Shown in pieces: positions 3,047 through 50,576 of a stretch of DNA of 53,957 nucleotides (position 1 is its first letter; each line of letters opens with the position of its first letter). The stretch lies in contig JAUCBJ010005647.1 in assembly GCA_032718475.1 (NCBI GenBank), forward strand, positions 1 through 53,957, given 5' to 3'. Origin of the DNA: Nemertoderma westbladi. Taxonomy: Eukaryota > Animalia > Xenacoelomorpha. Below the pieces are notes generated by a model. That model was not told the origin of the DNA, ran no database searches, and saw nothing but the letters and a program-made list of their open reading frames with translations. Both the position numbers and the translations under genes were made by a program.

Positions 3047-4256
3047 TGTAAAAGCTTTTGTGGGATAACTGATACGTTTGCCTTTGCTGGCCAGTTCCCC
3101 CCCAGTCGCTAGAATACTCTCAAAGGGATTTATAACTAAAATAGTGCAAGCTACCAGCTTATTGGCTGATGTGCTGTACGGAGATATCTGGGCTCAGTTT
3201 AATCGGCCAACTAGCTTAGAGAGGTTGCCTTAGCCTTGCTGTTCGTGTCGGCCAATAGAATTTGCGTAGGCGTTGATTTCGACCTATCCCAGCGCTACTG
3301 AACTGAATTTCCTATCTCTATGCTCATCCTCTGTGTTGAACGGGGCTTCGTGGAATAAGAGTTTTTGGTATACTCGTATAGTAGTAGTAGTCATATGATT
3401 TTATATGATTCTGTTGTTGTGTTCCCATTTTTCGCCATAACACCGGCTTTTTGGGAAGAACTCTAGTAAAACTGCTTAAATTATCGAAAGTATAAACTGT
3501 TACCGAATCCTACTCACTAACTAATCTAATCAATCTTAACTCACTATTAATCATATTGTTTGTACTGTTATTTACCGTCAGTTATTAATTGTACCTATTT
3601 GTTGATGGAAATATTGCTCTTTGGATAATACGGATAAATCACCCAAATTTCCCAATTTTCTTGATACACTACAGGTTAGAGAGGCGGGCTATATATAACA
3701 ATTGCGATTTATATTAATGTGGTGTGTATTGAATCTAATGTTATTTAGCAGACCCTACATGAGTCAATTGCTGCTCTCTTTATGTGTGATCAAATGTACT
3801 GACGGTCGGCAGAATAGTGTGCATGATTGTTATTGGTAACAAAGCATTTCCTAAAGAATGCGCTTTATACTTTAATCATAAGCAGCAGTATCGTTGCGTT
3901 TAGTATAAGTCCTAGTTCTGTTTAAATAGATAGAGCGCCACGTCCTAAAGGAACTGTTAATATTTCCCGAAAGCCAATAATATCTGTCAGAAATTAATTA
4001 ATAACGATCTATCGAATAATACAGTAAGTTTACACTGCAACCTTGCAACCTTACGCTGCAATAATAAAATTTAAGCAGCCGAATTCAGCCTCCCGGGTGT
4101 AGATCCATCGGGTGAATGATCGCGCATGGGCTGACTTCGGGTAATGTTTTGTGTATTAGCATAAAATATTGTCGTATGCTAAAGTTGTTTTAATTAACTA
4201 AAAGACATATAAATTTTGGCAGGTTGAACTGCTAAAGGTCTTCAAAAGCGCGAACA
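3047..4256 (+). mobile_element. 3' LTR of LTR retrotransposon family A (~1.2 kb, TG...CA)
   Basis: Near-full-length direct repeat of 49359-50563. Starts TGTAAAAG, ends GCGCGAACA, and is preceded by purine-rich GGGAGCGG (3039-3046, PPT-like). Confidence 0.88.
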
Positions 4257-7094: not shown

Positions 7095-10000
7095 TATGAC
7101 AGGAACCAACAGAGTTGGCAGTATCGGATCCAGACCGGTACGTGAATTATACGCGTTGCCGCGTCCGTGGGCTGCTGAGCTGTTACTGGATATCTATAGT
7201 AGACCGAAGGCCGTTCAAAATAACTGAGTTTTGTTGTCTGTGTTAATAATCATAGTAATCGATAATAGCACAGTCTGAATATAATAGCATGCAATACAAT
7301 GGTTAGTGACGACGGTTAAGAACTGTTCCAGTCTCACAACTGTAAGGAACCAACTGAACTAGTGATCAATAACTACAACGGTTATATCATTGACACATAT
7401 TAAATGACCTCTACGCTACTGAGTGGCCTGAATATCCAATAGATGCGCTCTAATCACCCCAATGTGCTTACCCGCCCACCATTGGCTTAACCTGATTAAT
7501 TGTCACCTCGCCACTCCCTGTTGTCACCATCCCCACAAGCTAGACATACTAGGTTGTTTGTCCCTCTGAGGTGGTTTGACCTCTCACCTCTCTCTGTGGC
7601 TTATGGCATGTATCGCCTTAGTTGGTTGTGAGGTGACATTATTATTACTAAAATCACCTCGCCAACTATAATTGGTAAAATGACACTAATCCTATTTTCG
7701 GTGGGTAATGCAGGGAATTGAATCCGCTTACTTCACGTATTGTGCGTAGATTCATATCTAACGGTTTAGTGTTTTGGTTACTTGGACTGGCCTACTGGGG
7801 GTATTGGGTTTGTATTTGTTTATGTTGTTGCTTTGCTTCTGTCCCTGCCACGGTGTGGCTCTACTCCCAGCTCATGTGGACTAGAAGTCCCCTGCGTGGC
7901 CGCATGCGGTAGCAACTGTCTCACTTTCGGAAATGCATCCGCCGAAATATGTTCCGGTTTAGGTCGGCTGCATTCCGCTTTCGGTACCTTACTGAGACTG
8001 TCCTCACTATAGACTGGATCCGTTATTAACTCCGCCTCGTAGTTAAGGAAGTTCGACATCTCCTCCAACCCTGGCTCCACACCTTTCCTTTCTCGAGTGG
8101 AGAAAGCGATCTTTCTCCATTTGTTTCTCAGCCAGATCGGTAGTGCCTGCTCTATCGTGGTGATGTTGTTCGATGCATTGAGTTCGTGAGGTGCATCTAG
8201 AGTCTTTAATAATATTAGTGCTTTTTCTACTTTGTTAGTGAAAGTCTTGATGCTAACAGGGTTATCTGCGAGTCCACCTGATGTTATTCCCCTTAAGGTT
8301 TCTCGGATAATCTTCGCAGGATGGCCGAATTCCCGTCCAGGGCTCGCCATGCAGTCGTGAATCCTCCTTCAATACCTTGGCATTGCCTCACGATGTCGTA
8401 AGCTGGCCCCCCAGCATAGACTTGTAGATATTTAAGGCACTCCGCCTGCATGAGATTTTTTGTCAAGATCTCATTGCTGTACATACGCCGGAACTGTAGA
8501 TATTCCTCCGGCTCTTGCTACCATCGAACTTGAAGGGCTCCACGGGTGGCAGCTCAATTCTAGTTTTTAGCGCATGGATGAGTATTGCCATTCCCATCGC
8601 TTGTACTTCTAGCGCGCTCGATGGTGGGGATACAGGCTCCTTTGGTGTTGGGTGCGGTTCGCCTATCGCGCCTGTCGACTTTCCCTGAGTGGGATATATC
8701 ATCGGGGGTAGCGGTCCTCTCCATATCTCTGTGTCGCACGATTTGTTTGGATCGGAGGGGGTCGGGGTTCTTGTTTTTGGTTGTGTATATTGCGGATACT
8801 GTAATGGGGGAATGTCACCCTGCCCCATGTTATGGTTATGTTAGGTTTGGTACTGGTGTTGATGTTATTATATTTGGGGCCCACACACCTATCTGCAATA
8901 CCCTGGATATATATTGTATCCCTGCATATTATAGTAATACTGGTGTGCAGGTACCGGTATAGGCCAATCAGGTTCTTGCCAACTAACCGGTATGCATGCC
9001 GCGACCTCCGGGTCCAATCCCGGCATTTGCTTTACCCTATCGCCTACACTATCTCTCCCAGCATGGCCTATAGTATGTGCAGTAAGGCCTATAGTATGTC
9101 CTGCAGTCTGCCTGTGTCCTTCCAGATCGAAGTTTAATCTTCTCGAATATTCTGAGCACTCCTCCCCGCGACTACCATATCCTCGATCGGCAGCTATGTT
9201 CCGACGGGAAGTTTCCCTCCGATCCCCTCTTCTGTCTTCTTCCTCGTACCGGTGCACTCTGTACCCCTCTCCCGGTGCATGGTATATTTCGCCAGGTTGT
9301 ATTTCTCCGGGGCGACGGCTATCTCCCGGAGTACGACCCCACCAGCTCTCTCTCTCCATTTCGACTATCAATGGTTCACTGTCCATCCTTTCTCTCTGGT
9401 TGCCCATAGCAACACTTCCTCATCCCTCCTCACCTTTTTTAATTTCAGCATAATGTCCTCCTTCATGAGATCTCGTATTGACCTCCCGGATGAACTCCAC
9501 TGTTCTTCTTCCGTCTTCCGAGTGGGCTAGACGTTTCCTCGTTTGGCTGCTTACGGCACCAACGTCCCTCCCTCTGCCTGGTTGGACGGCCCCGTGGATA
9601 TTCGCACTCCTCCTATTATGCTCTGTCATCGGGTGCCACGGTTCACTTAACTCACCGCACGCATTATCTGCCAACACTCGTGGGGCCTCTGTTGCCCCCC
9701 CCCCCCCACCTTTCCTCCATCATCGGGTGCAACGGTTCACTTAACTCATCGCACACATTATCTGCCGATGCTCATGGGGCGTTTATTGCCCCCCCCCCCT
9801 TTTTTCCGTCCGTCATCGGGTGCCACAGTCCATTTAACTCACCGCACGCATTATCTGCCGACGCTCGCGGGGCGTTTTCTGCCCCCCCTTGTCATTAATT
9901 GGTTGTGGCGGTGTGCCCGTAGCACCCCCCCCCCCCCCCCACCTGTCACCTCTTGTCTCGCCCCCATGCCCATGTTCCCCTCCAGTCGACACGTTAGTTC

Positions 10001-10577
10001 TCTCCTCACTGGGTTTATTTAACCGCGTTCCTCCCTCCACAACTGCATGGCCTTGTAGGCCCTCACTAGGCAAATTGCCTCTTTCCCCTAGGTTTGTATT
10101 AATTGTACCACCATTAGACTTGCGTGTGAATTATACGCGTCGCCGCATCCGTGGGCTGCTGAGCTGTTACTGGATTTCTATAGTAGGCCAAAGGCCATTC
10201 AAAATAATTGAGTTTTGTTGTCAGTGTTAATAATCACAGTAATCGATAATAGCACAGTCTGAATATAATAGCATGCAATACAACGGTTAGTGATGACGGG
10301 TAAAAACTGTTCCGGTCTCACAACTGTAAGGAACCAACTGAACTAGTGATCAATAACTACAACGGTTATATCATTGACACATATTAAATTACCTCTACGC
10401 TACTGAGTAGCCTGAATATCCAATAGATGCGCTTTAATCACCCCAATGTGTTTTCCCGCCCACCATTGGCTTAACCTGATTAATTGTCACCTCGCCACTC
10501 CCTGTTGTCACCATCCCTACAAGCTAAGCCTTACTAGCTTGTTTGTCCCTCTGAGGTGGTTTGACCTCTTTCTGTGG
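7095..10577 (-). mobile_element. Internally deleted BEL/Pao element related to family B (LTR - gag fragment - partial LTR)
   Basis: Diverged direct repeats ~7140-7600 and ~10125-10577. The left copy extends to TGTCA (7685) and GTCATA (7095) on the minus strand, and its end resembles the family-B LTR end. The interior is homologous to gag at 17044-19000. Confidence 0.75.
7700..10100 (-). pseudogene. gag: Fragmented BEL/Pao gag
   Basis: ORFs 8889-9407, 8463-8828, 8293-8484 and 7820-8350 match family-B gag (RIELPPVEPFKFDGS, GHPAKIIR, WLRNKWRKIAFS) with several frameshifts. No pol. Confidence 0.85.
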
Positions 10578-12635: not shown

Positions 12636-14075
12636 TACGGTGGCTGAATGTGGCCAATTTAATTAATTTTAAAAATGGGAAATATAAAAAGAAATTAATG
12701 AAATATAATTCCTTAAAACAGAAATTAATCAAATTTAATTCAGCCAGAAACAGAAATTAATCAAATATAATTCAACCCAAAACAGGAATTAATCAAATAT
12801 AATTCAACCCAAAACAGGAATTAATCAAATATAATTCAACCCAAAACAGGAATTAATCAAATATAATTCAACCCAAAACAGGAATTAATCAAATATAATT
12901 CAACCCAAAACAGGAATTAATCAAATATAATTCAAACATTTTGGAGGGAAATTTAAAATACTTTCTCAGTGCAGTGCAGCAAATTGTCGTTTCCTTTTCA
13001 GTCTATCAGTGCAGTACTGCAGTAACGGTTGCCCGTAGCTCTGTAAGCTTAGTTCTGTGGTTAGTTGTTAATCTTTTAATCACTACAGCACTACTGACTA
13101 CCGATCTACGTAATGATGGTAGTACAAAATGTAATGATGTCATGGGTGATAGGGAGTTGTGGCGGCGCAATTTTGTCGACAAGCCCGCACAGCATTCTTA
13201 AAAATGCAGCTGCAATGCAGCATGCAGATACTAGTAGTACACCTGCAGTACAGTTCTATATACAACTACTGAACTAACTAATCCTACGGAATTACCGGTC
13301 TTTCTGAAGATTGGTAAGGTAAAGCTGCCGGATTGCCCCGTAGTCAGGTCGTATCGGTCTGTTGGTAGTCAGTAGTGATTAAAAGATTAACAACTAACCA
13401 CAGAACTAAGCTTACAGAGCTACGGGCAACCGTTACTGCAGTACTGCACTGATAGACTGAAAAGGAAACGACAATTTGCTGCACTGCACTGAGACAGTAT
13501 TTTAAATTTCCCTCCAAAATGTTTGAATTATATTTGATTAATTCCTGTTTTGGGTTGAATTATATTTGATTAAATTCTGTTTGTGGTTGAATTATATTTG
13601 ATTAATTCCTGTTTTGGGTTGAATTATATTTGATTAATTTCTGTTTCTGGTTGAATTATATTTGATTAAATTCTGTTTGTGGTTGAATTATATTTGATTA
13701 ATTCCTGTTTTTGGTTGAATTATATTTGATTAATTCCTGTTTTGGGTTGAATTATATTTGATTAATTCCTGTTTTTGGTTGAATTATATTTGATTAATTC
13801 CTGTTTTGGGTTGAATTATATTTGATTAATTTCTGTTTCTGGTTGAATTATATTTGATTAATTTCTGTTTCTGGTTAATTATATTTGATTAATTTCTGTT
13901 TCTGGTTAATTATATTTGATTAATTCCTGTTTTGGGTTGAATTATATTTGATTAATTTCTGTTTCTGGTTGAATTATATTTGATTAATTTCTGTTTTAAG
14001 GAATTATATTTCATTAATTTCCTTTTATATTTCCCATTTTAAAATTAATTAAATTGGCCACATTCAGCCACCGTA
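12636..14075. mobile_element. Non-autonomous foldback DNA transposon, IS3EU-like
   Basis: Termini TACGGTGGCTGAATGTGG...CCACATTCAGCCACCGTA with 6-bp TSD CTTATG (12630-12635 / 14076-14081). Very long TIRs contain 32-bp tandem repeats around a ~260-bp unique centre. TAY..RTA ends with a 6-bp TSD fit IS3EU as recalled. Confidence 0.8.
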
Positions 14076-14195
14076 CTTATGTTCGAAACGGATTTACAAT
14101 CTTAAACGGCACTTATTTCTCATACATAACGAAGTTAAGGATTCTAATTCAATAAATTACTTGATGGCAAAGGGTCGCAATGCCGAGACGAAACG

Positions 14196-14739
14196 TGTTA
14201 GCTTATTCAATCCCGCTAACACCCCATAAAGTTATAAGCCGATAAGCAATATTGGGAGCCACGAGATTGGGTAATTAACCAACTCGTGCCATCCCAATAA
14301 GAATGGGAAGGAGAAGCACACAATGAGGGTCAGGGGCCAAACCCCTAACCCAGAGAGAATAGGTGGAGTGAACGGGAACACTCCAAAGGGCGCCAACAAG
14401 GGTATCAACCAATCAGAGGGGGGAAAGGCATCGATTAGGTAGAGTAACAAGGCCAACCGTGCAATATAGCCACTTGGCAGTAATCATACCAGTTCAGTTA
14501 TCTCAGTGCAATACCGGTGCTAGATTAGGTTACAATAGTTTAGCTAGGGAAGGACCGGGACTTTAGTTACCGTATCCCGCCTTCCGTATACGACAATATA
14601 TCTCATACCTATATCTATATCTATATCTGCATATCATATTATATACGACAAACAGTACAAACTCATTTACTCTTTATACACGGCGGGGACGCGTGAACTA
14701 AAACCGGATAAACCGGGATCCCTCTTGGATCCCGTCACA
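14196..14739 (+). repeat. 5' LTR of family B (544 bp)
   Basis: Identical to the 3' LTR except one substitution seen and a 288-bp insertion in the 3' copy. Confidence 0.95.
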
Positions 14740-14748
14740 GTAACTAAA
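14740..14748 (+). promoter_or_regulatory. Non-tRNA primer-binding-site position, complementary to own LTR (14562-14570)
   Basis: GTAACTAAA is the reverse complement of TTTAGTTAC. Confidence 0.6.
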
Positions 14749-14805
14749 CCAGCTGCCGCCCTAGACAAACTCAGTAACCACCAGCCACCAACCTGCAGAA
14801 GAAAG

Positions 14806-17800
14806 ATGAGTCAGTCGGGAGAAATAACACCGACGCGGACCCCGGACGAAGAACAAACGATCCGCGAGGCCGCGACCAGGCGGTATAGGCCCACGACGCC
14901 GGAGCCATCGATAACGGGCGACCCGGAAGTTCAAGATGAGGGAGACCGTCTGGAGTCAGAAGCCGAGTCGAGAGGAGGGGGAATCGAGTCGGAGGATAGA
15001 GAGAACGGGCTCGAGGGAGAAGGAGACGAGTCGACACGGGGCGAGGGTCGACGCACCGGTGTCGTCGGCCAGCCACAGGCCGAGAGCGACGAACGGCCCA
15101 CCGAGACGATGACAGTGGGGCCGACGGTACGAGGAAGGACCCGGAGAGACGACGGAGGTGTCGATACCGATGTCGCCGGCCAGCCACAGGCCGAGGGCGA
15201 CGGACGGCCCGCCGAAACGGCGACGGTGGGGCCGCCGGTACGACGTCGAACCCGGAGAGACGGATGAGGGGTCGGCGACGAGGACGTCGGGGTTTCTGAG
15301 CGACTTCGACGGGCCTACAACGCGACCCGGAGACTACTAGAGGAGGCCAGAAAGGGGAAAACGATAGACGAGGTAAAACTGAAGTCAGGACTAGGTAAGT
15401 CGGACAGACATTTATACTATCTAATGCATTTCGGGCAGAGAGAATTGGCCGAGGAGAGAGCGAGAAAGGTTGCCGAGGAACTGTATGACTCATGGCGGCA
15501 TGGGGGTATACAACCTAGTGTAGTGTACATAGGGCCATATTTAATCGATGCCCGGGGTATAAAATTAATGGGTTGGAACAGACCTGAAGGGGGCGAATCC
15601 GAGGTTAACCCCGAGGATTCGGCCTCGTCGGTCGGAGGGAGTTCCGGGAGGAGGGGGAAAGCTAGTAGATCGGGAAGGCGGAGGGAGTCCGTCGTAACCG
15701 ATAAGTCTGCTACATCCTCCGCGAAAGAAAGACTGGTGAGAGAGGCAGGTGCCGCGTACCGTCTCGAGCTGATAGAGCAAGGTCAGAGGGAAATGGATAA
15801 ACGGCTAGAGGAGGGGAGAATGCGGCTAGAGAGGGAAGCGGCATTGATTAGAGAAACCGGAGAGAGGGCCGAAAGGGCTTTGAGAGGCCTTAGGGAGTGT
15901 GAGGAAATAGAGGAAAAGGAGTGTAGGGAACGTGAGGCAAGAGAGGAAAGGGAACGCAAAGAGCGCGAGGCGGAACGCAAGGAGCATGAGGCGAGAGAGG
16001 AAAGGGAACGCAAAGAGCGTGAGGCGGAACGCAAGGAGCATGAGGCGAGAAAGGAAAGTGAACGTAAGGAGCGTGAAGCGAGGCGAAGGGAGAGTGCTAG
16101 GAAAGTAGTAGAGTTGGCTGAGCGGGACGCGCGGGAGTGTGAGAGGAGAATGGCAGGAGCCGAGCGAGACCATGAGGAATTAAAGAGACGCCAAAGTGAG
16201 CTTGGGGAACATAGGGTTAGACGCGCGCACGAGCTGCAACTGGTGCGGGCGGGGGCGTCTGAGGGCGGGACTGGCTCGAGTATTCTAGGGGAGCCAGGGG
16301 CCGTGGATACATTTATTAATACCCCACTTGCAGGGACCGCACGACAGACCCAAAACTGGTGTGACCGTACGGGCGGGGGGGGGGGGGGGGTAACAATGAT
16401 AATGATACAGTAGACGTGGTTAATATTAATAGTACCGTATGGGATAATTCTAATCAAACCTTTATTGCAGGGAATACTTTGCCTAGTGGTAGTAATTTAA
16501 ATTTAAATCAGAACAATCTTAATATTAATGTAGAAAATAATCCTAATATTAATGTAGCTACGCAAAATAATCCAAATAATCAAAATAATAATAATTCAAA
16601 TAATTTAATTAATGATCCAAGCCCGAATTTACAAAGTAATTCAGACAGTGTAGTCGTGCAAAGTAATTCAAATGATTTTGTTTCAAACGAACAAATTAAT
16701 TCTGTATCCGATATGGGTGCTATTAACGTAAACACGTCGGGCGTGTACAGCCAGGCAAACGGGGACCTGGCAGGCCACACAGTTGGTGGGCCGGAAGTAG
16801 CTGGGTTAGGTAGACCCAGCGAGGGCCTGGTAGGCCACGCAGTTGGTAGACAGCGAGCAGAGGGCCTGGTAGGCCACGTAGTTGGTAGGCAGGGAGTGGC
16901 TGGGTTGAATAGACCCAGCGAGGGCCTGGTAGGCCACGCAATAGCAGAGGGAGAGGCGGGGGTGAATAGACCCGACCGCGATAGGGTTGATGTGTCGACT
17001 AGAGAGGGATATAGTAGCGTAGTGAGGGATAGCGAAGTTAGATGTGGCGAGTGGGGGGGGGGGGCTACAGGGGCCCCACAACAGCGAGTTCGCGGCGAAA
17101 GGGGGGGGGTGTGCAGAGAGTGTCCCACAGCCGTCAGCGGATAATGCGAGGGCCAAAATAGGTAAACCGCAACAACCGGCGACGGAAAGTAATAGGGGGA
17201 TTGCGAGTATCCCCAGCGGCGTGCGACCGAGCAGAGAGAGACAGGTTGACGTCGTGGGAGGGCGGACGAAGCGTCGAGCCCGATCAGAAGAGGGAAGAAG
17301 AACAGTGGGGTTTAACCGGGAGGTCGACGAGAGATCTCACGAGCGGGAATACTCCACTGAAAGGAGAAGAAGAGAGGATAGTAGTAGAGGTATCGCCGCG
17401 AACGATAGAAGAGCGAGGACGGATAGCGAGCCGTCGGTGGTCGAGATGAGAACAGAGAGTCAGTGGGGTCGGACTCCGGGAGATTGCCGTCGCCCCGGAG
17501 AGATGCGACCCGGCGAGGCGCACTACACGCCGAGAGAGGGGTACGCGATGTACCGGTACGAAGATGAAAACAGTAGAGAGGGGGGTCGAAGAGAAACTTT
17601 CCGACGGAATATACCTACCGATCGAGGATACGGTAGCCGCGGGGGGGACTACTCGAGAAGAATAAACTTCGATCCCGAACAACACATGCAGACTGTAGGA
17701 CATACTGTAGGCCTTACTGCACATACCACAGGCCATACTGAGAGAGGCAATGTAGGCGATAGGATAGCGTGGACAACGGGATTAAACCCGGAAGTCGCGG

Positions 17801-20800
17801 AATACATACCGGCGAGTAGGCCAGAAGCTGATAGGCCTATACCGGTACCAGTACGGCAGTATGACTACAGCATGCAGGGACATAACATATACCCAGGGGA
17901 GGGGGGAATCATTGCGGATTGTTGCATGGGCCCCAACATATTAACATCAACCCCAGTACCAAACATACCAGTGGGGGGGGGGACAGGGTGACATTCCCCC
18001 ATCACAATATCAACAATATACCCCGATAGGAGCAAGAACAACGAGACCCTTGGATGAGAATAGGTCGTGTGATACAGACATATGGAGGGGGCCGCTACCC
18101 CCGATGACATACCCAAGTCAGAGAAAGTCAAGAAATAGGACAGACGGAACGCACCAGACAGGAGAAACTATACAGTACCCATCGAATCCATTGGAAGCAC
18201 AGGCGATGGGGATGGCCACGTTGATCGATGCGTTGAAAACGAGGATCGAGTTACCACCCGTGGAACCATTCAAATTCGATGGGAGCAGGCCGGAAGAATA
18301 TCTACAGTTTCGGCGCATGTATAGTAACGAAATACTAACAAAAAACTTGACGCAGGCGGAGTGCCTAAAGTATCTACAAGTGTACACGGGAGGCCCAGCA
18401 TACGACATAGTGAGGCAATATCAAGGAATAGAGGGCGGCTTCACGACAGCATGGCGGGCACTGGATAGGGAATACGGGCACCCGGCCAAGATCATCAGAC
18501 AGACGTTGAGAGGCATAACATCGGGTGGCCTACAGGATAATCCCGTTAGCATTAAGACATTTGCTAACAAAGTTGAAAAGGCGCTAATCGTGCTGAAGAC
18601 GCTAGACGCGCCATACGAGCTCAACGCGTCCAACAACATCACCACGATAGCGCAGGCACTACCGAGCTGGCTGCGCAACAAGTGGAGGAAAATCGCCTTC
18701 TCCACTCGAGATAAGAAGGGTGCGGAACCGGGTTTAGAAGAAATGTCAAACTTCTTAAACTACGAGGCTGAACTAATAACTGACCCAGTCTATAGCGAAG
18801 ATAGCCTGGGAAAGGGACCTAAGACAGACTACCATAGACCGAAACCAGAGCACAACACATCAAACGCATTACCGAGACTCAGGCAATCATTGCCATATGC
18901 AGCGATGCAGGGGACTGCAAGTCCACAGCTAGCCGAGGATAAGACAACACCATGGAACGGACAGGGAAACAATAACAACACGAATAAACATGACCCCAGT
19001 ACGTCCAGTAGGCTAAATCCAAACAATAAGAATAGTAGGGACTTTGGTACAAACGCAACTGCGATACGCAATGTGCTGTATAAAGAGGGCTACGACCCAA
19101 AGAGCAAATGCCAGCTACACGCAAATGCGCTTCATCAAACCATGAACTGCAGGTACTGGCAGGCGCTACCTAGGCAAGATCAGATAGATTATGCGTTCAG
19201 CAATAAAATCTGCTCGCGATGTGTAATGAGTGGACATAGAGCAAGGGAGTGCAAGGAGAAGCCAATAAAATTTGGTCAAAGGAGAGGCCAAACGATGGCG
19301 ACGAGCACAGTAGGGGCGAAGAAGAGGGGAACGGTGTTACTTGGAGTAGTACCAGTGCGAGTGATCGGGGAAGGCAATCGATCAGTAACAACACTAATGC
19401 TGGTTGATAGTGGAGCTGCCTTCACATTAGTCGAGGAATGGGTGGCCGAAGAGATAGGATTGAGAACGAGGCCAAGCAGGATGGCGGTAACAACCATCTC
19501 TAGCAAAGATGAGATCCTAGAGATGAGAACAGGACGGTGCGCAATTGCAGCAGTGGCACCAGGATGCGACTATGGGGCAACCATCGACCCCATCCAAGTG
19601 ATAGAGTCAATTAATATTAATGCCAGGCGACCAACCAACATCGAGGTCGAGCAGTATAAATTCCTGGACGACATTGACTTCTCAATCCCAGACGTGGACG
19701 TTAGGAAGGTGTCCATCATAGTAGGCATGGACTGCCCAACGGCCCACGAAAGAATGCAAACGGTCTTCGGCGAAGACAAGCAGAGTGACCCGGTGGCCAT
19801 ATTAACACCATTCGGGTGGACGCTGAGTGGTCCAATTAAGAGCAAGATACCATTTAGGATGTCAGAGACATCAGGATGCATGTTCGCGGGAACAATGCAG
19901 GAAATGGGTGACGAGGGAGCAGAGGAGCAGCTTAAAAGACTGCTCAGACAGGATTTCGAGGGACTGAAAGAAACCGGGGTCGGGACCTCGGTGGAAGACA
20001 AGCAGGCTTTACAAAGCGTGGAGGAATCGATGACATGCGATGAGGGGCGGTATACTATAGGAATGGTATGGAAACTACCGAAGATACCGCTGCCCGACAA
20101 TAGGGGGATGGTACTCACGAGACTCCGCAAGCTGAAACAAACACTAAAACGGAGCCCCGAGAAGAATGAGTACATCTACAGGACGATTAAGAAGTACGTC
20201 GAGAAAGGATGGGCCGTGGAGTTACCGGTCGACGAGCCGAACACGGACAGGACATATTACCTGCCACTACACGTGGCTTTAGATCCAAAGAAAGGTAAAC
20301 TACGGATGGTAGTCGACGCATCGGCAAAGACCGACGGAAAATGCTTAAACGACTACCTGTTGGAAGGCCCAAACATATACAATTCGGGCATAGAGGTGTT
20401 ACTTAGATTTAGAAACGGGAAACACGCCTTCACGTGTGACATAGAAGGCATGTTCAACCAAGTCCGTGTAACAGAGGAAGATAGCGACAGTCAACGCTTC
20501 TTATGGTATAACGGCGAGGAAGAACCGTCGATAATACCGGCATATAAGATGGTAGTACAAAACATGGGGGCCAAGTCGTCTTCATTTACGACGACTATGG
20601 CAGTGAGAGACACAGTGAAAGGGAAGGAAGATAGATAGAGCAGTAGGGCCGTCGATATGATTCGACGCGGCTTCTACGTAGACGACGGAATGGAGTCTGG
20701 AAATACGGTTAAGGAGATACTGGACACAGGGCGCGAGGTTCGCGACATCCTAAAAGGATCCGGCTTTAACCTGACCAAATTCCAATCCAGTTCGGAAGAA

Positions 20801-23314
20801 TTTATTAAGGCGATAGAGGACAGGAGACCAGAATCGACCATGGACAATCCCACAACAGCCAAAGGGCAGGACATGGCGATTAAGAGAACAGAATCTCAAC
20901 AGAAGGCATTGGGAATCGTGTGGAACAGGGAGACAGACGAACTGAAGTATCAGCTGAACCAGGAGGGCGCAGACATCCACACGAAGAGGGGCTATGTATC
21001 GTATATAGCAAGGATATACGATCCCCTAGGCCTAGCATCCCCATTATTAGTCACGGGGAAACAGATACTCAAGAGAGTATACAAACTGAAGGATGAGTGG
21101 GACGTAGAGGTACCAGAGGAAATCAAGAAACAGTGGAGCAAGTGGACAGGAGACTTGGAGAAGATGGGAACATACAACTTGCCACGGGTGTATTTCCCGG
21201 ATGGGAACATGACGAATGTGGACCTACACATGTTCTCCGACGCGTCGTTGGAAGCGTACGGAGCGGCACTCTACTTAGTACAACGAGAGGGGGCTCATAA
21301 GCCAAGACTAGCCTTTAGTAAAGCAAAGTCAACGCCACCGGATTCAGCATCAGTTCCTAAGTTAGAACTGACAGCCGCGAGACTAGGGGTAAGAGCCACA
21401 GCCTACCTAGTGGATACTATTCCCAGCATAGTGGAGACACACTACTGGACGGACTCCATGGTAGTGCTTGGTTGGCTACACAACGAAAGAACGAGATACC
21501 CGATATTCGTCGCGAATAGAGTGGACGAAATAAGGGTGAGCACAGAACTGGAAAGGTGGCACTACTGCCCAACGGACGAGAACCCAGCAGACTTGTTGTC
21601 GAGGGGCGTGGTACGCCACACTTTCTTGAAGAAGGAAGTATTGTGGCAACATGGGCCACAATTTCTGAGCGATAAGGAAGCCTGGCCGCCGATGAGGAAG
21701 GTGGACCCGGGCTCGGAAGTAGTATCAGAAGGAGAAGAGGGAGATTCAGAGGGAGAAGAGATATACTCCCAGATGGTGAGGGAGATTAGGGACGTGCAAC
21801 CAGGACGGGAACTGTGCGATAACCCGACGGATAAACTCCTCAGCTACAGTTCTAGTTGGTATAAGACCATGAAACTAGTGGCGTACTGGAGAGCCTTCGG
21901 GAATTTCCTTGCGGGAGTTGGCAAGGACAAGAAGATCAGGACAACCATAGATCTGGAAGGAGCGGCCAAGGCAGTGATCCGCTATGAACAACGGAAGAAC
22001 TACGGCGACGAGGTGGAACGCGTCGGTAACTAACAGCACCTCCGACGGGACAGCGAGCTGATTACGCTGTCGCCACAACTCAATGACGACGGGATTCTAG
22101 TAATGAATTCTAGGGTGGGATACAACAACAGCATAGTCGTACCACCGAAACCTATCATCATTCCTACAGGATCGCCAATAGTCCACCAGATTATATGGGA
22201 CTCCCACAAATCGATATTGCATGGGGGCACCAACCGAACCCTCACAGAGATAAGGAGGACCTATTGGGTCAAACAATTAAGGAAGAAGGTTAAAGCGGTA
22301 GTGGGGCAGTGCCAGACCTGCCGACGAGCGAAGAAGGAGCGAGCCGTACAGGAGATGGCGCCACTACCGGCGAGTAGGGTAAGACAGCACGACCCGCCAT
22401 TTACGCATTGCGGTGTGGACATGTTCGGGCCGATAAAGATCAAAGTGATGCGACACACGGAGAAACGCTACGGCATTATCTTCGTATGCAATAACACACG
22501 GGCGGTAGGGATAGAACTCGCCCAAGATGCAACCGCATCAGCATTCATTAATGCCCTAGAAAGATTTAGAGACCGCAAAGGTGGGACGATCGCAGTGATA
22601 TACAGCGACAACGGCACCAACTTTGTGGGCGCAGAGAGTGAGATGGCAGAGGCCTTGGACATCTTGGAGGGAGAAGAAGTCAGGGCAGCCATGAGACGAC
22701 GACAAGTAAAGTGGGAGAGAAGGACGCCGTATGCACCACATACACTAGGATGCGTCGAGAGACTGGTGGGCAGTTCAAAGCGTCTAATGACGAAGCTAAT
22801 GAACACCCACATGGTCACTGAGGACGTCTTACGGACAGTACTTGCGAAGTGCGAGGGGATCATTAATAGCAGACTGCTATATCCGGAGAATGATGACCCT
22901 GAGTCATTAGACGTGCTGACACCTAGCCATTTCCTGATGGAAAGGCCAGCGACCATCGATATGCGGCGTGTAGACCCAGATGACATACACTCCCGCCAAA
23001 GTTGGAAAGTCGCTAAAGCAATAAGCGCAGAGTATTGGAGGAGGTGGGTCGAGGAATACCTACCCACACTCCATAAACGAAGCAAGTGGAGGAAGTCAAA
23101 CAGGGAGTTAAGAGAGGGATATCTCGTAATCGTTACGGATGATACTATCATCAACAACCAATGGCGGTTGGCGAGAGTAGTAGGCACCTACTCCGACGAG
23201 GACGGAAGAGTCCGATCGGTAGAAGTACGGATAGGTGGAAAGATAGGTGCGAAGGACAGAAAAACCTACAGGAGAGCTGTAGGCAAATTCTGTCTGTTAG
23301 AAGGGGCACCTTAG
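14806..23314 (+). pseudogene. gag-pol: BEL/Pao gag-pol polyprotein with frameshifts and nonsense codons
   Basis: Gag knuckle CSRCVMSGHRAREC; protease LVDSGA; RT YYLPLH, RMVVDAS, DIEGMFNQV, YVDD; RNase H FSDAS, LEL, WTDS, NPAD; integrase H-H-CC, GVDMFGP, SDNGTNF, ERLVG, WRRWVEEYL. In-frame stops at 20636-20638 and 22031-22033, and several gag frameshifts at poly-G runs. Confidence 0.95.
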
Positions 23315-23435
23315 TGGAGTTAGAGAAAAGTTTAGTCGTCCAAGTTTTGGACTGAGGGGGGTGGGATTGAGGGCGAGACGTCCTTCCCACAAACAAAAAA
23401 AAAAAAAAAATAATAATAAAATAAAATAATAGTAC

Positions 23436-24310
23436 ATGGTAGGTACGCAGTTAGTAGGCAGAAGTTAGTTAAGAGGTACGTAGTACCTAGTTAGTTAGTT
23501 AGTTAGAAGGTACGTAGTACCGATAGTTAGTTAGAGAGTTAGAGGGTACGTAAGTACCGCTAGTTAGTTAGAGTTAGAAGGTACGTAGTACCTAGTTAGT
23601 TAGTTAGTTAGAAGGTACGTAGTACCGATAGTTAGTTAGAGAGTTAGAGGGTACGTAAGTACCGCTAGTTAGTTAGAGAGTTAGAGGGTACGTAAGTACC
23701 GCTAGTTAGTTAGAGAGTTAGAGGGTACGTAAGTACCGCTAGTTAGTTAGAGAGTTAGAGGGTACGTAAGTACCGTTAGTTAGTTAGTTAGAGAGTTAGA
23801 GGGTACGTAAGTACCGCTAGTTAGTTAGAGTTAGGAGGTACGTAGTACCTAGTTAGTTAGTTAGTTAGAAGGTACGTAGTACCGATAGTTAGTTAGAGAG
23901 TTAGAGGGTACGTAGTACCGATAGTTAGTTAGTTAGTTAGAAGGTACGTAGTACCTAGTTAGTTAGAGAGTTAGAGGGTACGTAAGTACCGCTAGTTAGT
24001 TAGAGAGTTAGAGGGTACGTAGTACCGCTAGTTAGTTAGAGTTAGAAGGTACGTAGTACCGATAGTTAGTCAGAGAGTTAGAGGGTACGTAGTACCGATA
24101 GTTAGTTAGAGAGTTAGAGGGTACGTAGTACCGATAGTTAGTTAGAGAGTTAGAGGGTACGTAAGTACCACTAGTTAGTTAGAGAGTTAGAGGGTACGTA
24201 AGTACCGCTAGTTAGTTAGAGAGTTAGAGGGTATGTAGTACCGTTAGTTAGAGAGAAAGTAAGAGTCAGAGGGTACGTAGTACCGTTAGTTAGAAGAGAG
24301 AGAGTAAGAG
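23436..24310 (+). repeat. ~30-bp tandem array between pol and the extra ORF
   Basis: Unit approximately GTTAGTTAGAGAGTTAGAGGGTACGT(A)AGTACCGCTA, roughly 25 copies. Confidence 0.92.
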
Positions 24311-24784
24311 GTAAAAGGGGATATAGATATAGATATTAGTTAGCAGTTAGTAGAGAGAGGGGGGCATATGAGTACAGCTGGGTAAGTCGTGTGGCCACAC
24401 GACGCATACTGCTGTACTGCATAGGCCAGAATACAGAGTAGGCCAGAATGTGGATTAGAGAATAGAATAATCCATAGGCAGTAGTAAGTAGTAGGACAGT
24501 AGAATCAAATTAAATAAATAAATAAATAGAATAGGGCTGAAAGTTACAAAATAGTGGCAACACAAGGGAAGTTATTCTAGAACATAATAAAAGTAACGGA
24601 CAGAAATTGTAAATTACGCTCATTTACTAGCTTCAAAATTAATTAGTGATAATTTAGGTTAAAAGGCGCAGTTAAGTAGGAAGTAGGCCATTATCGAACC
24701 GTACAGAACATCCTAGATACATCACTCATCTGTATTGCGCCTTGGTAAGGCACCACCTTGCAGGTGAGCGAGTGAACGTTCGGA

Positions 24785-27335
24785 ATGGCGAGTAAGTTGA
24801 TCAGAAATAGAAAAGCGGAGTCAGGAGGAAAGGAGATACTGGTGGATTTCACCGAGAGGCATCCGGAAGAGAAGACGAGAGGATACTACGAGAGGTTGGA
24901 AAGGGGTCACGCGGCGCGAGCACTGCAAGATCACTTCAGGGAGATGCACGAACAGCGGCTGGTCGGGACCTACGGGACGCCGTCGCTGGACAACGCGATC
25001 TTCCAACACTTCCACTACGTGGTGAGAGGGGACGAGGCGAAGTTCGGGATTCCGAAGTACCCGAGGGAATCACCGAGGAAGGGCTGGAAGAGATTCATAG
25101 AGTCCGTCAACAGAGGAGGATATATGATCCTAGACGACGAGGGAACCGTGGAAGACGAGGCGGGTTCGAGACGAGGAACGGCGGGGTCGGCCAGGACCAT
25201 ACTCCTACATTTGGCCACGCCAAATGGGGACATCTTCTTATTCGACCTAGGGACGTATGGGAAGAAGGACAGGCCGAAATTAAACCGGTTACCGAAAGTG
25301 GTACAAGTCTTAGTAAGAGAGAAGTCGACGACGAAAGTGGGATCGGCGATTCGCGAGGACGCGGAGAGGATCATCAGTCCGGACGCCACCAACCTCCTGG
25401 ATATGCAGAAAGTCTTTATGGCTATGACGGCACCGGATGGGTTGGGGGTAGTCGAAAACACAGGCCAAAGCGGGGCAGTGGCGATGGGCCAATCATTGGG
25501 GCTCGTATGCCACAAACCGATGGACTGGGGGAAGTTTAGGGAAGAATACGGAGCAGAACTAGCGAACTCGCTAAAGTGGGGAGCGAGACCGGGAAGGCAG
25601 GAGGTATATCAGTTCCGAAGGGGAGCGATAAAGGTATATCAGAAGCGATATATCCTGCAGGAGGACTGGATGATGATAAGTTTGCTTAACTTATTCATGA
25701 CCGTGGTTATCGAGAGGGAACCAGGGGCATTTCTGTTATCGGGATCACCCCTAAGCTACAGGAGAGCCTTTAAGACGGCCTTTGACGATCTGGTAGACCA
25801 CCCGGGGCTGAAGGGCGAGTCGGTGTACTACAACAGCCGACATCTGGTAGACGGGGAGACAGATACACCGTATCAGAGATGGGAGCAGCTAGAGACGGAT
25901 AGACGAGAAGCAAAGCGACTGGAAGAAGTCGCTAGACGGGAGAGGATAGAAGCAGAGGAGAGGGAAGAGGAGGCAGGGACACAGAGTTACGGCTTCAAGG
26001 AACAGGCAGGCCTAGACGAACTTCATTGGACTTCATCAGGGAGTTCGGAGGAGTCTCTAGGGCGAGAATTGGGATGGACGGTGGGATCGCCGAAACAGTC
26101 GACGTCGGGGTTGCAAACAATGCCCATACCAGCGGGCGCCGAGGGCGACCAACCGCCAAGGAAGTTAAGGGAGCTAGAAGGATGGAGAGCTACGGGCGAG
26201 AGCCAAGGCGGGAAGGGACATAGTGGATCCATCGGGATACCGGGGTTGGAGACACTACCAGAAGAGGAGGACGACGACGATGAGTTCGGAGAGATGCCGC
26301 CCATCGAGAGGATAGGCCACTCGGACATGGACTGGGTTGGCGGAAGGGTGGTGACTGCCAGTGGGGCAAGGGCCTTCTGGAACAGATCCGGCAAGCGGAC
26401 CTGGGTGCACGAGGAGTGTGGCGATGGATTTCGCGGGGAGCACCATCAGGTTGGGCGAGCAACCGGGGACGACACCACGGATAGTATTCGGGGAGACGAT
26501 GCCCGAGAGGGGCGGAGAGATCGACGTAGATAGAGAGACCAACGTAGAGAAGTTCGCCTACCAGCTACTCCACAGACCGCGGAGATCGCTTGGGACGAAA
26601 GACGAGGTGGGACGGGAGACATTGGTACTCGGCTGCGACTACTGTGGGAGACAGACCCATCGGGAAAGCAGCTGCCTATACCGGTTCCAAAAAGGAACCT
26701 TTTGTCTCTACTGCAGAGAACCAAGCCACAGGATGGGGGCGTGTCCACGGTTGCATAACCGATGTCCAAAGTGCCACTTTCGGGGACACTACGGACGCGA
26801 GTGCGACTGGATGAACGACGAGGAGAAGTTCACAAGATTCGAGGAGTGGGCCGACGTCGGGGCCATGACGCGCCAGCGCATGAAGGCCCAGGAGTTCAAG
26901 TGGGGTTTCTTCCTTATCAATCAGGAGACTCACATGGAAATCATAAAGCGGAGGCTGCCGTTTACCTACCAAGAGGTAGCAACGGCGGCGTCGTACGCTG
27001 GAGTGATGAACACGCAAAGATATTTGGACAGGTGGACGCCAGAGAACCGAAGGGAGTTTAGGGATTTCTTGGCGGAGCACGTACCAAAGGCAATGAAAAT
27101 GATCCTATGGGACGCCACCAGAGGGAGACAACCGGGCCACTCTGAGGGGCCACCGGCGAAGCGATATCGGGCACTAATAACACCAGCGCCCAAGGAGCCA
27201 ACGACCGGGATCAGCAAGGAAGTAGCGGCGAAGGTCCGAAAGCAGAAAGCGGATGATGCCAGAGGAACGGTGATAACCAAGAAACGGCCCAGGGAACAGG
27301 ACGCCAGGGGGAACTATCCCCAGAGGAACAGATAG
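24785..27335 (+). CDS. Extra 3' ORF of family B: DEDDy-like 3'-5' exonuclease + triple CCHC knuckle (two overlapping frames, probably one frameshifted gene)
   Basis: ExoI MILDDEG, LLHLATPNGDIFLFDL, LPKVVQVLV..KVGSAIRED (ExoII), LLDMQ and QKRYILQE (ExoIII-like). Then CDYCGRQTHRESSC, CLYCREPSHRMGAC and CPKCHFRGHYGREC. Confidence 0.78.
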
Positions 27336-28050
27336 GTTCCCAGAGTCGAGGGATAGAGACTGAGACTTGGACGTGGTGCGCCTGGAAGGCGCCGCGTGGG
27401 ACGTACGAACTATTAAGTACAAGTTTAATTAATGCAAATAATCATATAAGTGCAATTTGTATGTACGTATGTAGTAATTAGTAATCTACGAATATATACG
27501 CTGGGAGTAAGTACTATAGTCATACAACCTTTCTCAATTAGCTACTGGGACTGGGGGACAACTGACTATGGCACTATGGACGAGACACCAGACGATTTCA
27601 CACTTCTTGAGTGCGACGGCACAAGAGGGGGGGGGGGGGGATTCGTCAGAAGGGATGAGGTAGTCAGAGTAGGGTTGAGGGACAGAGTAGTTAGTGCGAA
27701 GTGTGGAGAGAGTGCGGACGCAATTCTAGTGTGGGGGGGGGGAGAATAAGAGGCTGAGTGAGGGACGAGGAGGTCCGAGTGTATGAGAGAGTTAGGATGA
27801 GAGTGAAGAAGAGATAGGGCGGAAGTGTTGGGGAAACAAAAGTTGTGTGAGAGGTGAGCGTGATCGGCCCGACATGAGACGCCAGGCACACAGGGTAGCG
27901 TTATCATACCCATAGGGAGCGGCCTGGAAAGCCGGCTCCGAGAGAAAAGAATTCCACCCCACACCCGATACTAGATCGGGATCCAGCGGGATTGTAGCGC
28001 ACTTTTTGGTTGATGCTATCTTCTTACCGGGAAGATAGCATGGGGGGGAG

Positions 28051-28882
28051 TGTTAGCTTATTCAATCCCGCTAACACCCCATAAAGTTATAAGCCGATAA
28101 GCAATATTGGGAGCCACGAGATTGGGTAATAAACCAACTCGTGCCATCCCAATAAGAATGGGAAGGAGAAGCACACAATGAGGGTCAGGGGCCAAACCCC
28201 TAACCCAGAGAGAATAGGTGGAGTGAACGGGAACACTCCAAAGGGCGCCAACAAGGGTATCAACCAATCAGAGGGGGGAAAGGCATCGATTAGGTAGAGT
28301 AACAAGGCCAACCGTGCAATATAGCCACTTGGCAGTAATCATACCAGTTCAGTTATCTCAGTGCAATACCGGTGCTAGATTAGGTTACAATAGTTTAGCT
28401 AGGGAAGGACCGGGACTTTAGTTACCGTATCCCGCCTTCCGTATACGACAATATATCTCATACCTATATCTATATCTATATCTGCATATCATATAGGTTT
28501 AAATGAGTTAGAATGGGCTATATTCCGGTTTAAATAGTTAAAAAATTCAAAATTTACATGGCAATATAATTATGATCATTAAACATATTAATATTAACAT
28601 ATTAAACTATATTAAACTTTATTATTTTTAAACCAGACGTTCTGAAGATTTTGAAATGCATTAACGTTTTTAATATCTGGTTTACTTATTTATTTGTTTT
28701 TAATTACTTTTAATAATTTAATGTTTAATGATCATAATTATATTGCCATGTAAATTTTGAATTTTTTAACTGCATATCATATTATATACGACAAACAGTA
28801 CAAACTCATTTACTCTTTATACACGGCGGGGACGCGTGAACTAAAACCGGATAAACCGGGATCCCTCTTGGATCCCGTCACA
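28051..28882 (+). repeat. 3' LTR of family B, with secondary insertion 28495-28769
   Basis: Matches the 5' LTR. The insertion is flanked by a 13-bp duplication CTGCATATCATAT. Confidence 0.95.
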
Positions 28883-37111: not shown

Positions 37112-37628
37112 TTAATGATTATTTATCGGTATTCTCCAAATATAACATCCATTAATATAAACAGCAATTAACAACAATATAAAACAGCATTAAAACAGTG
37201 CGGTGAACAGAGTCAGTATATGTTCGTGAAATATGTTATGAGTTATGATGTGGTGTTCGTATGCAACATAAAACAGGGTAATAGATTTACGTTCTTATAT
37301 CTCCAGCCATCAGATGTTCTTGGGCCAAAGTCTGAAACATCTGTACTTAGTACTGAATCCAGAAAGGAATTGGATTCTCAGAAAAACTATAACTGCACAT
37401 GCGCCAATTTCCACAGGTAGGTCTCTATTGGTATAACTGGGAAGATTGCTCTGATTGGCTGAATAGGCCCAAACAAAGAAACCTCCACGTACACAAATAA
37501 TCAGCTGACAGATTTCGTCATCTTGGTTCTAATTTCTGACCGATGCATAGTTGAACAATTTTAGGCCTTTTTAGAGTATTCAGCACATTGCATAAAAATG
37601 ACTTGTTATGTCCGCAAAACCTTTTACA

Positions 37629-39468: not shown

Positions 39469-40075
39469 TAACCCCAGATTTAATAATTGACTTTTTAGAA
39501 GCTGTGTTGTTTTTACGTTTGTTTAATAGACTGTTTAAAAGCTTCCACGTCTTTGGCATATTACTATTCTTAGTAAATTCAGATGTGTAATAATGAATTA
39601 GGATTTTTGACTGAAACATTGGTCATTTATGAAAATACCACAATTATATAAACCTTGCCAATGAAATCAGCACATTCTCAAACCTCTGTAGCCAAACTAT
39701 AAGGCCAAATTACCACTTTTGGCTATTTGAAAATTTCGAGCTACTTGTAATTTTGGTGCTCTTTTAGTGTCTATTATAAAATAAACAATGAAGATTTTAT
39801 CCTAATTTTGCTTTCGATTACTAATAATTAATTCGACGAACCAAAAAAAAGCATAATATTGAATTTATAAGAAATCATAATAAATCACGTACTGCTGTAC
39901 TGCTGCGGTCTAATACTGCTGTACCGTGCTTTTGATTGAATATACTACTGTTTTAACCTGAACTCAATTTGGTACCGCGCTACGCTGTACCTTCAATTAT
40001 TATTACTATACTTCTGTACCTCTACTGTTCGCATCTCGGTACCTACCTGTATCCGCCGTCACGGAATCGGATACG

Positions 40076-41320: not shown

Positions 41321-41455
41321 TTGATTCTGATTTGTAAATTGTAAATTAACGTTTAAACAAACCTAATTATGGGAATATTTTTATATAATTTATTTTCATT
41401 TTTATTATATTTATTCGTATTGCAGTGCGATTGTATATATAATATAAATTCTAAC

Positions 41456-49358: not shown

Positions 49359-50563
49359 TGTAAAAGCTTTTGTGGGATAACTGATACGTTTGCCTTTGCT
49401 GGCCAGTTCCCCCCCCGGTCGCTAGAATACTCTCAAAGGGATTTATAACTAAAATAGTGCAAGCTACCAGCTTATTGGCTGATGTGCTGTGTGGAGATAT
49501 CTGGGCTCAGTTTAATCGGCCAACCAGTGTAGGGAGGTTGCCTAAGCCTTGCTGTCCGTGTCGGCCAATAGAATTTGCGTAGGCGTTGATTTCGACCTAT
49601 CCCAGCGCTACTGAACTGAATTTCCTATCTCACTGCTCATCCTCTGTGTTGGACGGGAGCTTCGGGGAATAAGAGTTTTTGGTATACTCGTATAGTAGTA
49701 GTAGTCATATGATTTTATATGATTCTGTTGTTGTGTTCCCATTTTCGCCATAACACCGGCTTTTTGGGAAGAACTCTAGTAAAACTGCTTAAATTATCGA
49801 AAGTATAAACTGTTACCTAACTAACCTAACGCAATCGACTTATCTGATCTAATTAACTCACTATTAATCATATTGTTTGTACTGTTATTTACCATCAGTT
49901 ATTAATTGTACCTATTTGTTAATGGAAATATTGCTCTTTGGATAATACGGATAAATCACCCAAATTTCCCAATTTTCTTGATACACTACAGGTTAGAGAG
50001 ACAGGCTATACATAACAATTGCGATTTATATTAATGTGGTGTGTATTGAATCTAATGTTATTTAGCAGACCCTACATGAGTCAATTGCTGCTCTCTTTAT
50101 GTGTGATCAAATATACTGACGGTCGGCAGAATAGTGTGTATGATTGTGATTGGTAACAAAGTATTTCCTAAAGAATACGCTTTATACTTTAATCATAAGC
50201 GGTATCGTTGCGTTTTAGTATAAGTCTTAGTTCTGTTTAAATAGATAGAGCGCCACGTCCTAAAGGAACTGTTAATATTTCCCGAAAGCCAATAATATCT
50301 GTCAGAAATTAATTATTAGCGATCTGTCGAATAATACAGTAAGTTTACGCTGCAACCTTACACTGCAATAATAAAATTTAAGCATCCGAATTCAGCCTCC
50401 CGGGTGTAGATCCATCGGGTGAATGATCGCGCATGGGCTGACTTCGGCTAATGTTTTGTGTATTAGCATAAATTGTTTTCGTATGCTAAAGGTGTTTTAA
50501 TTAACTAAAAGACATATAAATTTTGGCAGGTTAAACTGCTAAAGGTCTTCAAAAGCGCGAACA
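49359..50563 (+). mobile_element. 5' LTR of a second family-A element (element runs off the window end)
   Basis: Direct repeat of 3047-4256, followed by a ~2.2-kb leader and a long ORF. Confidence 0.88.
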
Positions 50564-50576
50564 GTAACAGTTTATA
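50564..50576 (+). promoter_or_regulatory. Non-tRNA primer-binding-site position, complementary to own LTR (49804-49816)
   Basis: GTAACAGTTTATA is the reverse complement of TATAAACTGTTAC. Confidence 0.7.

Follow-up and report, generated by a model that had tools for sequence, protein, structure and literature searches.

Structure and setting of element B

The window considered here is the whole stretch of DNA that was analysed (53,957 nt; positions 1 to 53,957 of contig JAUCBJ010005647.1 from Nemertoderma westbladi). It is animal-type DNA, rich in repeats, and tRNA and Rfam searches of it gave no match. Within it lies a retrotransposon of the BEL/Pao superfamily, called element B here, with long terminal repeats (LTRs), a target-site duplication (TSD) and a polypurine tract (PPT):

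14196-28882, forward strand: element B, BEL/Pao
14191..14195, forward: 5' TSD, AAACG (same letters at 28883-28887)
14196..14739, forward: 5' LTR of B, 544 nt, TG...CA
17945..23314, forward: BEL/Pao gag-pol part of B, with two in-frame stops in this copy
28042..28050, forward: PPT of B
28051..28882, forward: 3' LTR of B, with a second copy of the anti-PBS (see below) at 28417

Element B has the features by which BEL/Pao elements are recognised, namely a Pao-type order of Pfam domains (DUF1759, aspartyl protease, RT, Peptidase_A17 with E 4.8e-41, integrase and DUF5641), TG...CA LTRs, a 5-bp TSD (AAACG) and a PPT, which bears out its description in an earlier note on this DNA as a bona fide BEL/Pao family. 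Database matches of its RT were BEL polyproteins, the nearest protein being 41% identical, and the nearest database proteins to its RNase H were 27-39% identical. This copy is disrupted by frameshifts and the two in-frame stops. The B insertion is young, since its LTRs are nearly identical (1 difference over the first 444 nt, leaving aside 272 nt inserted into the 3' LTR). A quick tree of 59 rows, built without named references, left B on a long branch (2.7) without placement in a named clade.

The 272-nt insertion in the 3' LTR (~28495-28766) is AT-rich and palindromic, and is flanked by a duplication of ~13 nt. Between the integrase and an extra open reading frame of B, positions 23467-24300 hold a tandem array of 23 copies of a 37-bp unit. 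Just upstream of B (12659-14053), two inverted arrays of a 32-bp unit form the long arms of a foldback-like element. Element B itself was inserted into the start of a broken ORF (14170-14195 / 28883-30200), the later part of which (28883-30200) looks tyrosine recombinase-like by eye, judging from its motifs; Pfam gave no support for this reading.

A primer-binding site complementary to the LTR of B

The earlier note had drawn attention to the letters that follow the TSD-verified 5' LTR, stating that they pair with 14562-14570, and the two segments indeed form a perfect 9-nt complement. They are called here the PBS (for primer-binding site) and the anti-PBS:

14740..14748, forward: PBS GTAACTAAA, directly at the LTR end (spacer 0), without TGG
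14562..14570, forward: anti-PBS TTTAGTTAC, predicted primer 3' end at 14570, next base C
14512..14560, forward: upstream arm; predicted partner is leader 14749-14790, continuing the register of the anti-PBS:PBS helix

In B, as in three further elements of the window (A, C and D; see below), no TGG occurs within 5 nt of the LTR end. B is thus not classed as tRNA-primed, since that assignment relies on a PBS starting TGG within 5 nt. Dinucleotide shuffles of the B LTR gave a 9-nt match at offset 0 in 7/5000 cases, and in 21/5000 when offsets 0-3 were allowed, while 36 of the 13302 internal 9-mers of B have a complement in the LTR. By itself, the 9-nt match in B is unusual yet modest. Its length is also one short of the 10-nt cut-off given in the available text of Neumann et al. 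(PMC6317226), which A and C reach.

The pairing continues beyond these nine bases. When the 60 nt ending at 14570 were combined with the 60 nt after the LTR, a duplex of -37.9 kcal/mol was predicted in a single continuing register (1/1000 shuffles), and the extension without the 9-nt core was matched by 13/1000 shuffles. If the upstream arm pairs with the leader in this way, it must be present in the RNA.

Families A, C and D in the window

Three further elements of the window were compared with B:

49359-50563, forward: family A LTR, with a second LTR copy at 3047-4256
49804..49816, forward: family A anti-PBS, 13/13 complementary to the PBS at 50564-50576 (1/5000 shuffles)
37278..37288, reverse: anti-PBS of family C, AAATCTATTAC; complement of PBS 35007-34997 (minus) from the second PBS base on
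10300..10308, reverse: candidate anti-PBS of element D, degenerate; LTR end assigned by the analyst

Each of A, B and C matched its own LTR better than foreign ones (B 9, A 13 and C 10 nt; foreign LTRs at most 7). The match of family C covers 10 nt from PBS base 2 (1/200 shuffles), the first PBS base being unpaired, so that the terminal pair is lost. The register is the one that a primer requires: in all three families, the last base of the complement faces PBS base 1, with the terminal base of C mismatched. Families A and C are related, and letters have changed on both sides with the pairing kept; the PBSs of A, B and C have only 3-5 leading bases in common.

These comparisons bear on the idea that a host RNA, such as a tRNA half or another small RNA, primes B, the LTR complement serving as a switch for packaging, dimerisation or translation. 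Copia lineages with half-tRNA priming and no TGG are known (available text of PMC6317226), and the folding described below marks the B RNA, with its U5 decoy and leader helices, as a switch in any case. However, A, B and C would each require a separate host primer, and their complement always ends at the first PBS base. Together with the spliced complements of distant loci presented in the next section, this makes host-RNA priming very unlikely in our estimate.

The match of element D at the expected place was no better than chance (200/200 shuffles), and its LTR end is uncertain because a shared block continues past it. D is nevertheless the closest relative of B within the window. It spans 7142-10569 (minus strand) as a gag-only derivative related to B (73% at the DNA level), and its two repeats are alike on both sides of the apparent LTR, perhaps as part of a tandem array.

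The motifs CA/GTAAC and GTTAC/C (slashes mark the LTR end and the predicted primer end, respectively) are common to A and B, as the earlier note had said. A 3' ORF that encodes three CCHC knuckles is common to the two as well (tblastn E 1.8e-6), and they are therefore not unrelated; A, which is known in the window without a pol, probably belongs to the same lineage as B. The extended pairing seen in B was not significant in A (257/1000 shuffles). Overall 94% identical, the two A LTRs agree at 101/102 positions as far as the base that follows the predicted cut, then at 17/36 in the next block. Of all 30-column windows in this 1.2-kb LTR, the least alike one starts at 49817, immediately behind the predicted end of the primer. 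With two copies only to compare, this divergence block (49817-49852) looks as expected of a strand-transfer boundary.

Primers assembled by splicing were considered in the window as well. A 15-nt splice-junction primer in A was rejected, its donor and acceptor being poor and the terminal pair dropped, and in B, C and D no splice-junction primer was better than the contiguous match (best junction in B 8 nt, 10/200 shuffles). Spliceosomal cleavage at the primer end was likewise rejected, as GT does not follow the end in A, B, C or D. Families A (50564-52744) and C (35007-33275, minus) both have a leader of ~2 kb before a first ORF without a Pfam match. Family C is truncated. A 1.5-kb element that carries terminal inverted repeats (~35570-37110) divides its LTR in two.

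Self-complementary LTRs in distant BEL/Pao loci

An RT alignment yielded 79 BEL/Pao loci from metagenomes (31-40% identity), and the 11 of these with both LTR ends defined by a repeat were tested for contiguous and splice-junction complements of the PBS. In nine, the complement is created at a GT-AG junction inside the LTR (10-15 nt); one has a contiguous complement (L043, 11 nt) and one a TGG site (L019). Shuffle nulls were 0-2/200 for each of the ten self-complementary loci. The nine junction loci (L005, L009, L014, L022, L032, L047, L073, L075 and L078) represent eight families if L073 and L075 are counted as one. The predicted primer ends at AC/C in 8/10 of these distant loci, the exceptions being L009 (AT/C) and L032 (AC/T), and the same end is common to B (TTAC/C), A and C. 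A blind scan of 43 further loci, in which AC/C was not required, found junction matches in 11 (6 new families), all of them AC/C. Contiguous matches of the blind scan, evaluated without a null, were mostly chance-like and are uncounted; L026 alone among them ends AC/C. Further junction-type loci include L001, L002, L023, L028, L029 and L071.

The LTR introns at the junction-type loci are GT-AG introns of 71-164 nt, spread widely across the BEL/Pao tree of loci, from which 21/79 loci, L019 and L078 among them, were left out for short matches. That splicing creates the complement implies that it acts in RNA. Moreover, nine loci that build an AC/C-ended complement by splicing are difficult to reconcile with priming by a host RNA. 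Like B, the nine junction loci are BEL/Pao elements with a non-TGG PBS and an AC/C-ended self-complement in the LTR, 87-216 nt from the LTR end compared with 169 in B. Unlike them, B has a contiguous, intron-free complement and is a distant long branch, so that the shared feature indicates a common trait and not close kinship. The AC/C-ended self-complements of the distant loci are the strongest reason for taking the 9-nt match of B as functional.

The earlier note had named canonical tRNA sites in relatives of B as evidence against its proposal. When this was checked, a tRNA-type PBS was found in 1/11 loci, all of them distant. No close relative of B was found (best RT match 41%), the exact LTR-end pattern of B gave 0 matches in metagenome contigs, and viral contigs searched with the B RT query and alignment gave no match. 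Short tandem duplications occur just after the predicted primer end in L072 and L075.

Self-priming of B is thus backed beyond its 9-nt match by the own-LTR pairing in A, B and C, by the extended pairing in B and by the same AC/C trait in distant BEL/Pao elements. Overall, these comparisons suggest that B is very probably self-primed.

Folding of the leader RNA

Four further segments of B are needed for its predicted folding:

14548..14585, forward: local hairpin, loop 14561-14574, predicted before U5 is transcribed
14571..14592, forward: segment adjoining the predicted cut on its 3' side; U5 ~14675-14691 is its predicted partner, with predicted stacking on the anti-PBS:PBS helix
14693..14702, forward: U5 decoy, an imperfect direct repeat of the PBS that captures the anti-PBS in the minimum-energy fold
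14714..14734, forward: U5 terminal hairpin, 8 bp, beside the LTR end

The earlier note had placed the anti-PBS in the loop of a hairpin with a stem at 14548-14586. The hairpin exists, with its 3' boundary at 14585 rather than 14586, and reaches -16.6 kcal/mol when folded alone (z -1.86; 9/200 shuffles equally good). The loop position holds for nascent or truncated RNA only; in the whole leader the motif is predicted outside the loop. The probability of the hairpin is ~1.0 while the RNA ends before ~14690 and at most 0.07 once 14693-14702 is included, when pairing of the anti-PBS with the decoy is predicted at 0.93-1.0. Local hairpins elsewhere vary: D has a comparable one with the motif in the loop, that of C is weaker and A has none.

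For leader 14496-14810, the energy cost relative to the minimum is 11.4 kcal/mol for the hairpin fold and 5.4 kcal/mol for the anti-PBS:PBS fold. The predicted ensemble gives the anti-PBS:PBS pair a probability of 0.001 in B and 0.02 in A, where a U5 decoy likewise wins the predicted fold. Since this pairing is not the predicted ground state in either family, chaperoning must be assumed. When B is constrained to the anti-PBS:PBS fold, the primer helix stacks on a helix of 14571-73 with U5, and a short helix together with the U5 hairpin closes a junction beside the PBS. The leader RNA of B is accordingly predicted, from modelling, to be a structural switch.

The decoy also raises the question of whether the 9-nt match is a by-product. 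The PBS nearly copies U5 14693-14702, which pairs with 14562-70 in what could be an ordinary LTR hairpin; the decoy is an imperfect PBS repeat that wins the predicted fold, and 9 nt is short. Nevertheless, the match of the PBS is perfect and that of the decoy imperfect, the geometry recurs in A, C and 10 distant loci, and the decoy varies among other copies of B. We consider chance or a by-product highly improbable.

Variation among other B copies was taken from contigs of four public runs aligned to 14100-15000, which are presence data without phase. None among the 40 listed of 242 variant rows falls in 14545-87 or 14740-49, which may lend self-priming weak support. Contigs from one possible RNA run covered neither the anti-PBS nor the PBS. 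There are insertions in the decoy (14693-14702); the stretch from 14590 to 14664-74 and whatever follows 14742, 14743 or 14748 are replaced at joints. Some contigs depart from B after 14742/14743, and the PBS there may differ.

Start site and position of the primer

The following segment carries a TATA-like and an initiator (Inr)-like motif:

14465..14498, forward: TATAG (14465), TATA-like, and TCAGT (A at 14496), Inr-like, with a spacing of 31 nt

The Inr-like TCAGT is present at 14494, where the earlier note had placed it, and a second occurs at 14503. The spacing between the TATA-like motif and TCAGT is 31 nt in both B and D, and the motif pairs imply primers of ~75 nt in B, 40 nt in D and ~77 nt in C (37-nt spacing); a clear TATA-like/Inr pair was not found in the family A LTR. 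Neither AATAAA nor ATTAAA was found in the B LTR. The TATA-like/Inr pair suggests that transcription of B may start near 14496.

An alternative is the plain geometry of Tf1, in which the RNA would start at or just before 14562 and the primer would be its first ~9 bases, TCAGT being another or an unused start. At L005, a TATA box lies 36 nt before the donor, which would place the start on base 1 of the complement, as suits a 5'-terminal primer. For B itself, the earlier claim that the primer would not be the first nucleotides of the transcript is plausible from its 31-nt motif pair and its upstream arm pairing (13/1000). An RNA from 14562 would, in addition, have its anti-PBS:PBS fold just 2.5 kcal/mol above the minimum, and alternative starts are used by Tf2 (available text of PMC5341516). 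On the other hand, a TATA-like motif is absent ~31 nt before 14562, whereas both B and D place such a motif 31 nt ahead of TCAGT; pairing with the leader involves the arm that lies upstream of 14562 (13/1000); and a capped 9-nt primer would be weak. A 5'-terminal primer therefore appears somewhat unlikely, a judgement that concerns the position of the primer, as self-priming is common to this geometry and the preferred reading. From promoter motifs and upstream pairing only, we lean towards a primer that is internal to the transcript. An internal primer needs no new chemistry because only the 3' OH matters.

Proposed priming mechanism

In Tf1, RNase H creates the 3' OH of the primer by cleaving between bases 11 and 12 (available text of PMC7175516). 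By analogy, B probably primes itself with an RNA whose end at 14570 arises by cleavage, likely by RNase H in a Tf1-like junction. Transcription would begin near 14496, and the nascent RNA would fold the local hairpin first. The hairpin would then give way to a long R:U5 duplex with the anti-PBS parked on the U5 decoy. In the particle, Gag would transfer the anti-PBS to the PBS at a cost of 5.4 kcal/mol, and the anti-PBS would there stack on the helix of 14571-73 with U5. Cleavage behind ...GTTAC, for which the RNase H of B itself is the likeliest enzyme, as in Tf1, would put the 3' OH exactly at the LTR end, and this AC/C cut would free a capped primer of ~75 nt that still grips the leader through 14512-60. 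Synthesis of minus-strand strong-stop DNA would run as far as 14571, and the sequence lying upstream of the cut would be recovered from the copy in the RNA's 3' LTR. If the primer is internal, capped 5'-terminal bases are not required as a primer, and the model names one exact RNA end.

The extra 3' ORF and a trimming alternative

Both A and B carry an extra ORF (ORF3) in their 3' part:

24776..27335, forward: extra 3' ORF of B, in two frames; N-part weakly RNase D (DEDDy)-like, C-part with three CCHC knuckles as in A
826-2968: extra 3' ORF of A, with an RNase D-like piece and then three CCHC knuckles

The piece of A at 1070-1384 matches TIGR01388 (ribonuclease D) at E 1.5e-4, far below the curated cut-off. 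ORF3 of B resembles this piece weakly (E 0.016; the B-versus-A alignment was equalled in 84/1000 shuffles) and, further along and in the same order, E. coli RNase D (E 0.002). Searches of B ORF3 against Pfam, PHROGs, NCBIfam and PDB sequences, two large protein searches and a phage/plasmid tblastn found no homologue; two single-sequence AlphaFold models of ORF3 had pLDDT values of 32 and 37, and Foldseek returned nothing usable. The exonuclease part of ORF3 gave 0 matches in the 79 distant loci, many of which are short. The AC/C trait does not require ORF3, since loci without an exonuclease match still have the AC/C end.

DEDDy ORFs occur in rotifer LTR elements, with a suggested role in RNA 3'-end processing (available text of PMC5408684). 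A comparable activity could act in B if the PBS were annealed to a short transcript of the LTR, or to genomic RNA by its 3' end, and an RNase D-like protein of the element trimmed this RNA 3'-5' to ...GTTAC. The RNase D similarity of the A piece, the weaker one of B ORF3, the rotifer precedent and the presence of the anti-PBS in the 3' LTR as well are in line with such trimming. Against it, an RNase D domain is not established for B, the AC/C end occurs in loci without an exonuclease match, and a fixed base after the primer end suits an endonuclease better. Trimming as the source of the primer end thus seems quite unlikely next to the RNase H cut, and the RNase D-like protein of ORF3 is a candidate trimmer that would at most be an accessory of this lineage.

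Comparison with known priming systems

Tf1 and Tf2 (Schizosaccharomyces pombe), Tj1 and Tosmo1-3 form the Tf1/sushi group of Ty3/gypsy chromoviruses. B resembles them in having no tRNA site and an LTR-adjacent PBS complementary to LTR-derived RNA. It differs in its pol, which is BEL/Pao and not that of a Ty3/gypsy chromovirus; in its complement of 9 nt, predicted ~66 nt inside the transcript; in the sequence 3' of its PBS, which pairs upstream of the primer and not downstream; and in its competing U5 decoy and extra ORF. B likely works like Tf1 in priming and is not a member of the Tf1/sushi group. As in the Tf1 pretzel (available text of 10.1101/2022.12.06.519325), a multi-helix junction is predicted in B, with LTR downstream of the primer pairing beside the PBS and a U5 hairpin. 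Compared with the three-duplex pretzel, however, the junction of B is seen only under constraint, 5.4 kcal/mol above the minimum, and one of its flanking duplexes uses upstream RNA.

For the plant lineages Tcn1 (gypsy) and TAR/Houba/Osr-1 (copia), self-priming has been predicted because their PBS is complementary to the 5' LTR, with a 10-nt cut-off (available text of PMC6317226); the basis of prediction is the same as for B and the superfamilies are others. According to the same text, the half-tRNA copia lineages Osser, Bryco and Bianca have, as B does, a PBS without TGG and, as predicted for B, a primer end cut from a longer RNA. Unlike in these lineages, the complement of B, A and C is in the element and differs by family. 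The LTR elements Juno and Vesta of bdelloid rotifers have an RNase D-like (DEDDy) ORF3 after pol, some with a Zn motif, as here (available text of PMC5408684), but they are not classed there as BEL/Pao, and the RNase D domain is weakly supported in B; that text, as far as available, mentions neither a PBS nor self-priming.

Descriptions of self-priming so far concern Tf1/sushi, and predictions of it concern two plant lineages. The open literature, as searched, yielded no report of it for BEL/Pao, although subscription papers or Repbase entries may mention odd BEL PBSs. The C. elegans BEL element Cer7 is reported to have a self-encoded tRNA-like primer, a report that a literature search did not locate. 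If BEL/Pao elements do self-prime, this would be a reason why many of them have no recognisable tRNA site, and tRNA-free priming would have arisen again, or be ancestral, in a third LTR superfamily. Such elements would be immune to tRNA-fragment control and could be annotated by a non-TGG PBS together with an LTR complement ending AC/C, contiguous or spliced.

A broader and more speculative reading, which we regard as unlikely in its entirety, joins these observations: much of BEL/Pao would have given up tRNA priming, relying instead on a self-primer that is cleaved at a conserved AC/C, and the B lineage would use a capped, tRNA-sized (~75 nt) internal primer, gated by a switch from hairpin to decoy to PBS and finished by its own exonuclease. 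If true, this would be a fourth way to start LTR reverse transcription.

Other repeats in the window

Apart from the elements described above, the window contains a LINE with ORF1, endonuclease and RT (Pfam) at 39962-43824, and a satellite at 45325-47364 made up of 50 copies of a 41-bp unit (97% matched).
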